From Rickettsia typhi (GTDB lineage: Bacteria; Pseudomonadota; Alphaproteobacteria; Rickettsiales; Deianiraeaceae), in assembly GCA_945898725.1 (NCBI GenBank), contig CAMDIK010000007.1, forward strand, positions 3,859-67,858: a DNA stretch of 64,000 nt, given 5' to 3'. The notes under the pieces are model-generated. The model was not told the DNA's origin and searched no databases. It saw nothing but the letters and a program-made list of their open reading frames with translations. Below, piece by piece: positions 43,827 through 45,452 of this stretch. Both the position numbers and the translations under genes were made by a program. Every line of letters starts with the position of its first letter. Positions within the stretch are counted from its first letter, which is position 1.

Positions 43827-45452
43827 TTATGCTAAACCTGCTAGGCTGCATAGCTTTTTTATATACGCATCGGTAACACTTACCCAGTTTCCGTTTTTAT
43901 CTTGCTCGCCAACACAGTTCAAGATAAGCTCTGCGGCTTCCTTTTCATTCTTAACCTTCTTGTAAACAGAGGGATTGAAATAACCAGTACCTTTTGTCTC
44001 GCGTTTTTCCACAGCAGAGCTTTCTGTGGCTATGTATATATTACCTTCTTTTCCAACGCCAGATATGCGATATTTATCATTGCCAATATTGAGTGATACG
44101 CCGTTTGGTTTAAAATATGGGTTTTTACACTTTAAATTTTCCACCTGTGGCAAGGGTGCGGGTTGGAGGATTGAAGATTCAGATTCGATAATACTAGATT
44201 CACTTCTGGACATTTCTTCTACGCTTACCTTTTTCAATGCTTTCTGTAGCTTTCTCTCAAGCTTCTCAATTTTCTCTTTCTCAAGCCTCTCTTTCTCAAG
44301 CTTCTCAATTTTCTCTTTTTTCAGCCTCTTTTCCTCACGTTTCTTTTTTCTAAGCTGCCTTCTCTCAAGCTTCTCAATTTTCTCTTTCTCAAGCCTCTCT
44401 TTCTCAAGCTTCTCAATTTTCTCTTGTTCCAGCATCTCTTTTTCTTTTATTCGAAGGCTTGCATACTCTTGAAAGTCTTTCACAGATTTACATTCTTCGG
44501 GAATATTAAAATTAGCTCTACATGCTAAAGCAAAGACCCTCTGCTGCTGTTTTTGCACTTTCTCTATGATCTTTTTCTGGGCATCAGGAAATTTTGGTGA
44601 AGCCATTTTTGCTAGCGACTCAAGCATTTCAGATGTGATTAGTAGAAATTTACACACATGCTGTTGGTACTGAGACTGTATAATGTTTACACAATCCCCA
44701 AAGGCTTGATAGCTCATTGGGGAGTTGCCATACCTTTTGCAATCAGCCTGACGTCTTTCTGTTCGATCTTTGTACATCTTTTTTATATCCATCTCTTTCC
44801 AATTTGCCTTTATAAAAAACTCTATTGAAAAACCCAGCATACCCGGTTCCAAGGATTTCGATTTCCCTGGCTCCATCCTATCCCCAAATAACGGTTCCAA
44901 CTGCTCAAGATTTATACCCTCATCGTAGAATATTTTTGACATTTCTTCCCTACTTTTGGGATTACTCTGTTTCTTATATTCTGCATGGTATAGTTGTTTT
45001 CTTTCTGCTATACCGTCCAGTGTCATATCAATTACTTTCATAGAATTGCGATTGATGAAGTAATTCGTATCACCTAAATCACTATTTCCTATCATCCAAG
45101 ATAATACATTTTTTTCAATGCATTGAATGACTAGCTGGCGGTAACTCTTACCTGATGCTTTGAATCTATTCTCTAACTTTTCTCCAAATGACCCTCCCAC
45201 CTTATCATGTCCGTAGCCCTTGGCAATCAGGTTTTCGTTTAGGTGAAAATCCTGGTGTGGATATGTTTTTGGTGTAAACGGCCTTTGGCAGATCAAGTTG
45301 ATTATCATAAATGCACAATCTTGTATTTCAGCTTTCTCACTGCTCGCTCCTAGGCTTATGTATGACTTTTTGGAATTTACAGCATTTTCCAAAAATGATA
45401 TCTTTTTATTCTGCCCTGATACTACTTTAGCACTATACTTGCTACTATCCAT
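43827..45452 (-). CDS. Hypothetical 541-aa protein: N-terminal domain with a PI3/PI4-kinase-like (type II PI4K-like) catalytic-loop motif, central K/E-rich repeat, small C-terminal domain
   Basis: Residues ~84-145 read KVGGSFGEKLEN...RQLVIQCIEKNVLSWMIGNSDLGDTNYFINRNSMKVIDMTLDG. As I recall it, human PI4K2A reads KVGSFQLFVEG...[31 protein letters not shown]...IKVAAIDNGLAFP. Residues ~345-410 are EKIEKLEKERLEKEKIEKLER repeats. Confidence 0.6.
   Translation of the reverse strand: MDSSKYSAKVVSGQNKKISFLENAVNSKKSYISLGASSEKAEIQDCAFMIINLICQRPFTPKTYPHQDFHLNENLIAKGYGHDKVGGSFGEKLENRFKASGKSYRQLVIQCIEKNVLSWMIGNSDLGDTNYFINRNSMKVIDMTLDGIAERKQLYHAEYKKQSNPKSREEMSKIFYDEGINLEQLEPLFGDRMEPGKSKSLEPGMLGFSIEFFIKANWKEMDIKKMYKDRTERRQADCKRYGNSPMSYQAFGDCVNIIQSQYQQHVCKFLLITSEMLESLAKMASPKFPDAQKKIIEKVQKQQQRVFALACRANFNIPEECKSVKDFQEYASLRIKEKEMLEQEKIEKLEKERLEKEKIEKLERRQLRKKKREEKRLKKEKIEKLEKERLEKEKIEKLERKLQKALKKVSVEEMSRSESSIIESESSILQPAPLPQVENLKCKNPYFKPNGVSLNIGNDKYRISGVGKEGNIYIATESSAVEKRETKGTGYFNPSVYKKVKNEKEAAELILNCVGEQDKNGNWVSVTDAYIKKLCSLAGLA
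44256..44425 (-). repeat. Intragenic direct repeat: identical 62-bp segments at 44256-44317 and 44364-44425 (108-bp period), each with an internal 22-bp sub-repeat
   Basis: ctcaagcttctcaattttctctttctcaagcctctctttctcaagcttctcaattttctctt was read twice, 62/62 identical. It encodes the K/E-rich heptad-like region of the 541-aa ORF. Confidence 0.9.

Follow-up and report, generated by a model that had tools for sequence, protein, structure and literature searches.

An orphan 541-residue protein with a short kinase-catalytic-loop-like segment: a tentative candidate for a highly divergent kinase core

Here, we describe a 541-amino-acid (aa) orphan protein encoded on the minus strand of a 64,000-nucleotide (nt) stretch of contig CAMDIK010000007.1 (that whole stretch is called the window below), and a short segment of the protein that resembles the catalytic loops of kinases. 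The open reading frame (ORF) has an ATG start and occupies positions 43827..45452 on the minus strand, as had been described in an earlier interpretation of the letters and translations (the sequence-only reading). The same reading divided the protein into an N-terminal part, K/E-rich repeats and a C-terminal domain, an architecture that is confirmed by amino acid composition and by AlphaFold2 (AF2) secondary structure, and all of the peptide segments that it quoted are found in the protein. The features of the locus are as follows, in the direction of transcription (CDS, coding sequence; pLDDT, predicted local distance difference test; TRF, Tandem Repeats Finder).

45662..45690, minus strand: perfect sigma-70 consensus promoter (TTGACA, 17 nt, TATAAT, with an extended -10 TG), from a promoter scan with 12/12 matches.
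45498..45638, minus strand: 46-aa ORF (MQRKAKDRSGRV...) in the leader between the promoter and the 541-aa gene, called as a gene in two public assemblies.
43827..45452, minus strand: CDS of the 541-aa orphan protein, stop codon at 43827-43829, from the ORF list; an identical protein is present in NCBI (P0002, 541 aa).
44448..45452, minus strand: N-terminal globular region (aa 1-335); the AF2 secondary structure, of low confidence, is largely helical and has a single beta-hairpin at aa 131-142.
45024..45107, minus strand: kinase-catalytic-loop-like segment, aa 116-143, VLSWMIGNSDLGDTNYFINRNSMKVIDM, from alignments with PI4K2A, HipA and a ChoK/APH-like kinase and from profile scores.
44226..44447, minus strand: K/E-rich coiled-coil-type helix, aa 336-409, with 43% K+R and 28% D+E, pLDDT 80-94 over about aa 340-400.
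44253..44423, minus strand: in-frame 108-bp tandem duplication, from TRF arrays, with exact 21-aa repeats at aa 344-364 and 380-400.
44133..44225, minus strand: Ser/Glu-rich acidic linker, aa 410-440, with 26% Ser and 19% D+E, pLDDT <40 and no secondary structure.
43830..44132, minus strand: C-terminal domain of about 100 aa, aa 441-541, beta-strands and then helices in AF2 models of low confidence.

The three assemblies that carry this ORF are near-identical. The ENA counterpart of the protein (P0001) has 505 aa; an alignment of the ENA locus with the window over 17.5 kb shows 4 substitutions and a gap of a single base, and precisely 108 bp, corresponding to one in-frame 36-aa repeat unit, are missing from the ENA contig. 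The window and the NCBI protein have two copies of the 108-bp unit and the ENA assembly has one, and the K/E-rich helix of the window version contains two exact copies of EKIEKLEKERLEKEKIEKLER, starting at aa 344 and aa 380. A Logan contig (run ERR3719157) breaks within the gene at about aa 352, at the repeat start. The difference in repeat number between assemblies may reflect either polymorphism or assembly collapse.

The 541-aa ORF is a real gene, because it extends over 541 codons in DNA of 37% GC, has a perfect promoter, and is carried by three assemblies whose copies differ solely by the in-frame 108-bp unit. With the sigma-70 promoter lying about 210 nt upstream of the start codon, the gene is probably expressed. 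Its GC content (37.9%) equals that of the neighboring genes, and its codon usage lies at the margin of what housekeeping genes show (distance 0.115 versus 0.080±0.016). This codon usage, like the status of singleton orphan, would also suit a young or decaying gene without a selected function, i.e., a de novo or fast-drifting ORF that heads a housekeeping operon, in which case the strong promoter may serve the downstream Fe-S, folate, and pyruvate dehydrogenase (PDH) genes. However, no stop interrupts the 541 codons despite the AT-rich DNA, the assemblies differ by a repeat indel that keeps the frame, and the protein has a complex, domain-like organization rather than low complexity. We regard a gene of this kind as very improbable.

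The description of the protein as an orphan, made in the sequence-only reading, is strongly confirmed. Word-indexed searches of 5.8 billion clusters, both at E≤0.01 and at E≤10, returned the protein itself only, as did an exhaustive HMMER search (phmmer) over 1.84 billion representatives. Likewise, a search of GTDB genome contigs and tblastn against plasmids and phages found no relative beyond the protein itself. A word-indexed search with the C-terminal 138 aa gave zero matches, even to itself, though the protein is in that database, and negative results of this kind of search from short queries need care. There is no paralogue among the ORFs of the window and no positional orthologue beside alaS in 54 related loci. 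One tblastn match, at locus L019 (E=0.35), was rejected; the gene matched is apparently common to loci L048 and L052, and it has a hydrophobic C-terminal stretch and no kinase motif. The protein is a true, lineage-specific orphan.

As a whole, the protein appears modular and effector-like. It has no signal peptide or transmembrane segment (the maximum Kyte-Doolittle value for a 19-residue window is 1.03), and its sequence predicts that it is made in the cytoplasm. Single-sequence AF2 models have a mean pLDDT of 45.0 at full length and 41.7 for aa 1-335, and the K/E-rich helix is the sole part that is modeled confidently. The Ser/Glu-rich linker (aa 410-440) is probably disordered, judging from the models. 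For the C-terminal domain, there is no Pfam match, no PDB match below E=0.4, and no significant plasmid or phage match. A check by eye for the G-S...D-x-D motif of nucleotidyltransferases, the D-x-D motif of glycosyltransferases, and Fic motifs found no match.

Within the N-terminal region, one segment lines up with kinase catalytic loops. The segments of PI4K2A, a type II phosphatidylinositol 4-kinase (PI4K), that the sequence-only reading gave for comparison are genuine, as our PI4K2A copy matches chain A of PDB entry 4HND over 350 residues, and the sole difference is that the CCPCC cysteines are serines in the crystallized construct. The best Smith-Waterman local alignment of aa 1-335 with PI4K2A sets aa 105-133 against RQLLLQ...NDNWLI with a score of 54, a value reached by 0.4% of shuffled sequences (34.4±4.9). 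The best local alignments with Escherichia coli HipA (NC_000913) and with the ChoK/APH-like kinase of the window (choline kinase or aminoglycoside phosphotransferase type) also fall on the catalytic loops, in the correct register, with pairwise scores that are individually not significant. The loop reads G122-N-S-D125-L-G-D-T-N130, and it is followed by V-I-D142, which aligns with the I-D of the kinase families in hidden Markov model (HMM) and HH alignments. The codons of the key residues lie at nt 45078-45080 (D125), 45063-45065 (N130), and 45027-45029 (D142). In the sequence-only reading, D142 was numbered correctly, whereas the loop Asp is D125 and not D124, and the spacer from KLEN to RQLV has 9 residues, not 12. 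The leucine that it noted in place of the arginine of D-R-x is indeed there, the loop reading D-L-G-D-T-N. In all, the proposed line-up of catalytic loop and I-D stands, beyond chance at window or genome scale, for aa 116-143, and it falls for the upstream segments, where the resemblance is at chance level.

How specific is such a motif? We scanned public viral and metagenome contigs for DNA encoding W-h-h-G-N-[ST]-D-x4-N-[YFW]-h-h (h, hydrophobic), and the scan gave 15 matches (2 viral and 13 metagenome), 4 of them in short junk ORFs. In long ORFs, the motif belonged to a kinase in 11/11 cases, namely, 10 PI3/4K-like proteins (resembling phosphatidylinositol 3- and 4-kinases) and 1 HipA-like protein. 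PF00454 was matched by 6/6 of the PI3/4K-like sequences scanned, and the HipA-like hit (WVIGNSDMHLKNF...PAYD) was called from the motif together with 28% identity to E. coli HipA.

Profiles built from these two families also pick out the segment. From viral contigs, we gathered 60 non-redundant PI3/4K-like and 24 HipA-like sequences, using the collecting patterns N[TW]DRHxGN for the former and D[MG]H[LA]KNF plus P[MQ]EDM[AC]Q for the latter; the 541-aa protein matches none of these patterns. Comparison with the PI3/4K-like profile by hhalign gave a score of 28.3 (P ~1e-3, probability 15-22%) over the local loop only, against 12.7±2.5 and a maximum of 23.3 for shuffled sequences. Among 440 real background proteins, a genuine HipA alone scored higher (39.1), the next best reached 24.3, and the segment outranked all 438 non-kinase proteins. 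With HipA, hhalign gave 28.2 (P=0.007), and the 24-sequence HipA HMM gave 7.4 bits, a score reached by 0.07% of shuffles, with flanks that are not significant; a second, weak match of this HMM falls in collinear order on the C-terminal helices at aa 250-306. We also assembled 77 kinases (52 PI3/4K-like, 24 HipA-like, and PI4K2A) into a 41-position HMM of the catalytic segment, with which the protein scored 9.9 bits for the best domain and 10.7 bits over its entire length (E=0.012 among 742 sequences). The protein ranked second, after a true HipA ORF, and above every non-kinase among 741 background ORFs; the next background score was 6.0 bits, and 0/5000 shuffles reached the score of the target. 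By these profile statistics, the local match is significant at the scale of the window or a small genome, and not at the scale of a database.

It is tempting to see in this a genuine, very divergent catalytic core of the protein-kinase-like (PKL) superfamily, of PI3/4K-HipA type, within aa 1-335, whether active or a pseudokinase. We favor this reading tentatively, at somewhat short of an even chance. The N-domain would then be a minimal, extremely divergent PKL core, in which the helix at aa 104-123 ends in W-M-I-G-N-S-D125, D125 acts as catalytic base, N130 acts as first metal ligand, and the beta-hairpin positions D142 as second metal ligand. The roughly 115 upstream residues would make up a small ATP-binding lobe and the helical aa 145-335 the C-lobe, while the coiled-coil and C-terminal domain would serve in oligomerization or targeting. 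Some geometry is consistent with such a core. The D125-N130-D142 spacing of 5 and 12 equals that of a compact phage kinase (L069), and the stretch ahead of the loop, ~115 residues, is as long as the interval between Gly-loop and catalytic Asp in compact phage kinases. Around the segment, the low-confidence AF2 model has a helix (104-123), a loop, a hairpin (131-134/139-142), and a helix. A pseudokinase is equally possible, because the Arg, His, and Lys of known catalytic loops are missing. What we infer is a kinase fold, whatever activity it may have, and export of the protein to a host; on present sequence evidence, protein and lipid substrates are indistinguishable.

Many results weigh against a kinase core, beginning with its extent: the similarity appears to be confined to about 28 residues, aa 116-143, which include D125, N130, and D142. 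In an orphan without orthologues, these three residues gain no support from conservation. The full-domain, 60-sequence PI3/4K-like HMM places the loop in the right register, and its score of -2.3 to 0.2 bits is reached by 15% of shuffles. The sequence-only reading had suggested profile searches with PF00454 and with HipA models, and these found nothing: with the full protein and four sub-segments, Pfam, including PF00454 and the HipA models, returned nothing at E≤10, and NCBIfam (again including HipA) and PADLOC had no match at E≤10. Among the PHROGs profiles matched by real phage kinases, no kinase-type profile was hit. The only PHROGs match, a weak one of aa 103-156 (nt ~44985-45146) to phrog_22941, an 86-position profile of unknown function (E=0.014-0.049), gives no support, because real phage PI3/4K-like and HipA-like kinases do not match it. 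PDB sequences searched with the whole protein and with the N- or C-domain alone gave nothing relevant; for the N-domain, phmmer gave no match at E≤10 although PI4K2A structures are present there. HipA structures are presumably also in the PDB.

The flanks of the segment are equally silent. When aa 110-143 (or 114-142) were held fixed and the flanks were shuffled, the real score was reached by 14% of shuffles with the HipA HMM, by 51% with the 60-sequence PI3/4K-like HMM, and by 62-74% with a 6-sequence seed HMM. In a dynamic-programming alignment to the 60-sequence PI3/4K-like profile, anchored on the loop and compared with shuffles, aa 1-116 gave z=-0.37 on the N-lobe and aa 147-300 gave z=+0.32 on the C-lobe. 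The earlier line-ups of an upstream E-x-x-A...P-x-T segment and of KVGGSF with KVGSFQ do not survive this comparison, since the N-flank is at chance level. A relaxed hhalign alignment does place an alphaC-like element, P-x-T, G-S, the loop, and I-D in collinear order, with near-zero confidence, and the upstream line-ups are considered to be at chance level because of that near-zero confidence.

Residues that are invariant in the family are also missing from the segment, with DRH replaced by DLG, G-N by T-N, and ID[NH]G by IDMT. R-H is found in 60/60 of the phage PI3/4K-like members, which were themselves collected with a pattern containing DRH. After the I-D, the N/H-G of the family is replaced by M-T, with D142 at the same spacing of 12 from N130 as in L069. 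No ATP-binding Lys can be placed convincingly, nor can a Gly-loop; G13-Q-N15 and K28/K29 are candidates by eye only. The low-confidence AF2 models have no beta-sheet in aa 1-113, and Foldseek comparison of the low-confidence model with the PDB gave helical bundles only (E>0.5). The matches labeled PI3K alpha in that comparison are to chain B, presumably the p85 coiled-coil. Finally, the match was noticed post hoc, which implies heavy multiple testing across every known motif.

The same observations would fit a loop whose likeness is due to chance. We would then be dealing with a lineage-specific protein that is not an enzyme but a coiled-coil or adaptor protein, whether or not it is secreted; its N-domain would have a novel, mostly helical fold, and it would function in protein-protein interaction through its charged coiled-coil and C-domain. 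We consider this quite possible, at rather less than an even chance. A similarity of ~28 residues between flanks that behave like shuffled sequence, no library or PDB match, a full-domain PI3/4K HMM score that is not significant, and the loss of family-invariant Arg, His, and Gly all fit such a protein, as do AF2 models with only helices before aa 131 and the coiled-coil as sole confident element. Moreover, some coincidences are expected among billions of proteins and many motifs. However, the segment profile has a p of ~2e-5 per protein, with no non-kinase among 741 ORFs and 0/5000 shuffles reaching the score, and hhalign ranks the segment above all 438 non-kinase proteins. In addition, the motif occurs only in kinases within long ORFs of public contigs, and the position of the loop leaves space for both kinase lobes. 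For a post hoc match with many motifs, ~55 proteins, and per-protein p values of 1e-3 to 2e-5, we therefore arrive at a posterior probability that straddles one half, from well below it to well above it, before the negative evidence. Only after that did we count the loss of invariant residues, the absence of signal in the flanks, and the lack of a predicted N-lobe sheet, and these are why we hold the divergent PKL core only at the tentative level given above.

The closest real sequences to the segment are found in phages. The PI3/4K-like phage family, to which the 10 PI3/4K-like proteins of the motif scan belong, comprises 74 viral loci with ~60 non-redundant sequences, in which a kinase-like domain of ~220-250 aa is C-terminal (L057-L145); examples are ORFs of 732 aa (L058), 559 aa (L069), and 308 aa (L066). 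By eye, the N-terminal part resembles MuF/SPP1-gp7-type head-morphogenesis proteins in full-length members (L057, L058, L064, and L069). The motifs of the family are strikingly like those of eukaryotic type II PI4K (GGGIN...FKP...RE.AAS...LVP.T...GS.Q.F.EG...DW.IGNTDRH.GNW...LIDNGL.FP). From its sequence features, the family may be a MuF polymorphic-toxin or ejected-kinase module, and we met no description of a MuF plus PI3/4K-like family in a limited literature check. The target shares with these compact kinases the pattern D-W-h-I-G-N-T-D-R-H-x-G-N-W-h-h ... h-I-D-N-G in part, as well as compactness, the phage proteins having ~105-110 residues from the G-loop to the catalytic Asp and 12-14 from the Asn to the second Asp. 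In contrast, the target lacks the invariant R, H, G-N, and N/H-G, as well as GGGIN and FKP, and it fits the family HMM at the low bit score given above. Its domain is N-terminal, is followed by a coiled-coil, and lies outside phage.

The sequence-only reading went further and placed the protein in the PI3/PI4-kinase superfamily, as a divergent, eukaryote-like type II PI4K that would be secreted to remodel host phosphoinositides. The target and type II PI4K (PI4K2A/B; PF00454) do share h-h-x-N-[ST]-D-x-G-x-x-N-arom-h-I (arom, aromatic) followed by h-I-D, with Gly at loop position 3 as in DRG. The PI4K2A loop gives the best pairwise local alignment, with N-[ST]-D-x-G-x-x-N-[WY]-h-I in common, and the order of upstream elements is collinear in the near-zero-confidence hhalign alignment. 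Membership is nonetheless not borne out, as we found no PF00454 match, no DR[H/G] Arg, no G-loop or Lys, and no signal in the flanks. The PI3/4K-like HMM has a p of ~0.15, and chance accounts for the upstream line-ups. In the target, Leu takes the place of the loop Arg, I-D-N-G-L-A-F-P is reduced to I-D-M-T-L with loss of the N-G of IDNG, and the gap from Asp to Asp is 17 residues versus 38 in type II PI4K. The target is also without the GSSGSYF G-loop, the FKP Lys, and the palmitoylation insert; its flanks are unrelated, and ~15 billion proteins hold no eukaryotic or bacterial homologue. HipA-type profiles match the segment equally well or better, so that no feature singles out type II PI4K, a lipid substrate, or descent from eukaryotes. 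No result bears on a lipid substrate or on secretion, and an effector aimed at host lipids is one we would only infer. We consider the type II PI4K-like lipid kinase improbable.

There is precedent for effectors of this type. Bacterial PI-kinase effectors include Rickettsia Risk1, Legionella LegA5 and LepB, and Francisella OpiA, which were first taken for kinases mainly because of motifs in the catalytic and activation loops (PMC7298712). Both CDD and Phyre2 assign Risk1 of Rickettsia typhi to pfam00454, and its activity depends on H297, the His of the catalytic loop (PMC7298712). The target comes from the same taxonomic neighborhood as Risk1-type effectors (Rickettsiales), but it is without pfam00454 recognition, without the loop His, and without sequence similarity to any database protein. 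Reduced kinase cores also have a precedent in the "polyvalent proteins" of phages and plasmids, which carry strongly reduced kinase domains without a C-terminal subdomain and with intact catalytic residues (PMC5512222). These kinases are nearer to Ser/Thr/Tyr protein kinases and keep the ATP-binding residues (PMC5512222). They show that minimal cores occur in conflict or effector proteins, and we compared them with the target by description only.

Could the segment instead mark a HipA-like Ser/Thr kinase, the toxin of a toxin-antitoxin module acting on the cell's own translation machinery? W-M-I-G-N-S-D....N-Y-F resembles the HipA loop (WLIGATDGHAKNFS) and that of a short HipA-like protein (WVIGNSDMHLKNF), and the target shares with HipA (PF07804 HipA_C) and with short HipA-like/HipT proteins W-h-I-G-N/A-[ST]-D-x4-N-F/Y at the end of a helix. 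The 7.4-bit HipA HMM score and the weak collinear match at aa 250-306 point the same way. However, no HipA model of Pfam or NCBIfam matches, the His and Lys of D-x-H-x-K-N and the P-x-Y are absent, and 14% of core-fixed shuffles reach the score. The target has neither a VAGAQEKT-type P-loop nor a HipA N-domain, and 115 residues precede the loop, compared with ~200-300 in HipA/HipT. There is no HipB/HipS partner: no HipB-like gene with a helix-turn-helix (HTH) domain is adjacent, the upstream ORF has 46 aa and no Pfam domain, and the downstream gene is for Fe-S assembly. The architecture differs as well, since a coiled-coil and an extra C-terminal domain are unlike the toxins of toxin-antitoxin modules. 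A HipA-like toxin is, in our judgment, exceedingly improbable.

Returning to the divergent PKL core, its most far-reaching form would make the N-domain the founder of a new minimal kinase-like family, with a D-L-G-x-x-N loop without Arg, His, or Lys and then I-D. With an N-lobe of ~115 residues, it would be an active ATP-dependent phosphotransferase, delivered to a eukaryotic host by a deep-branching member of the Rickettsiales, and the coiled-coil and C-domain would target a host structure or membrane. We think this full scenario unlikely. The context for reading the protein as a kinase effector is a Rickettsiales-like alanyl-tRNA synthetase (AlaRS), a stand-alone 16S rRNA gene, and several nearby ORFs with no Pfam match.

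The affinity of the source organism can be judged from the rest of the window. The full-length AlaRS is 52-55% identical to those of Rickettsiaceae and Rickettsiales metagenome-assembled genomes (MAGs), and its N-terminal 181 residues are 74-80% identical to those of Rickettsiaceae/Rickettsiales MAGs. A complete 16S rRNA gene (30761-32269, plus strand) has no adjacent 23S or 5S gene, and fusA is next to it on the opposite strand. Members of the Rickettsiales typically have their rRNA operon split in this way. The AlaRS similarity and the stand-alone 16S gene thus suggest an uncultured, Rickettsiales-like alphaproteobacterium. It may plausibly live inside cells and possess a type IV secretion system; no type IV secretion gene was recognized among the window ORFs scanned.

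Around the 541-aa gene, the 46-aa leader ORF is without a Pfam domain, an HTH domain, or an obvious Shine-Dalgarno sequence, and it could be a leader peptide or a plain part of a ~200-nt 5' untranslated region. The genes downstream on the same strand are, in order, a Fe-S assembly gene, folB-folK, folP, the gene of a PDH E2 subunit (pdhC), and then a 1257-aa orphan. The 541-aa gene may head an operon, because no terminator-like site is found between it and the downstream same-strand genes. Neither Pfam nor NCBIfam finds a domain in the 1257-aa ORF (36489-40262, minus strand) of the same gene string, and the protein collection has no entry with exactly this sequence; another large orphan or effector-like protein may be encoded here. 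A 401-aa ORF adjoining the 1257-aa ORF (35085-36290, minus strand) is also domain-less. The other orphans of the window have no relative in 55 alaS-anchored loci of other alphaproteobacteria.

Elsewhere, the window carries complete-looking arginine and folate gene sets. An arginine-pathway run (48530-60554, minus strand) holds argH and genes for an AA_kinase, a semialdehyde dehydrogenase, an ornithine carbamoyltransferase (OTCase), and argininosuccinate synthase, as well as carA; a 1027-aa ORF beside carA is presumably carB. Such a long arginine-pathway run is probably unusual for a Rickettsiales-like genome. One product of the run, a 498-aa protein (49827-51323), combines AstE_AspA-like and MurB-type FAD-binding domains in precomputed Pfam matches. 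The 323-aa choline/ethanolamine-kinase or APH-like protein of the window (9481-10452, plus strand), a genuine PKL kinase, has a hydrophobic, signal-peptide-like N terminus (MKKYQLLVIIVLFACARSAVG). ORFs with no Pfam match or a sub-threshold P-loop Pfam match lie at 1949-2947 (plus strand), 23741-24916 (minus strand), and 53174-54208 (minus strand), and three further ORFs of this description, of 537, 214, and 197 aa, lie within 12995-15846 (plus strand).

What the finding means depends on which of the readings holds. If the likeness of the loop is due to chance, the protein is a case for caution: even at a nominal p of 1e-3 to 1e-5, a 28-residue active-site likeness falls short of establishing family membership. 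The caution applies where flanks, invariant residues, and fold lack confirmation. If, on the other hand, the N-domain is a kinase, it would be a very small, divergent PKL core that every standard annotation method has overlooked, and the catalytic-segment profile would recover kinases that full-domain models miss. In that case, the protein would represent a new effector-kinase family for an uncultured lineage of Rickettsiales.

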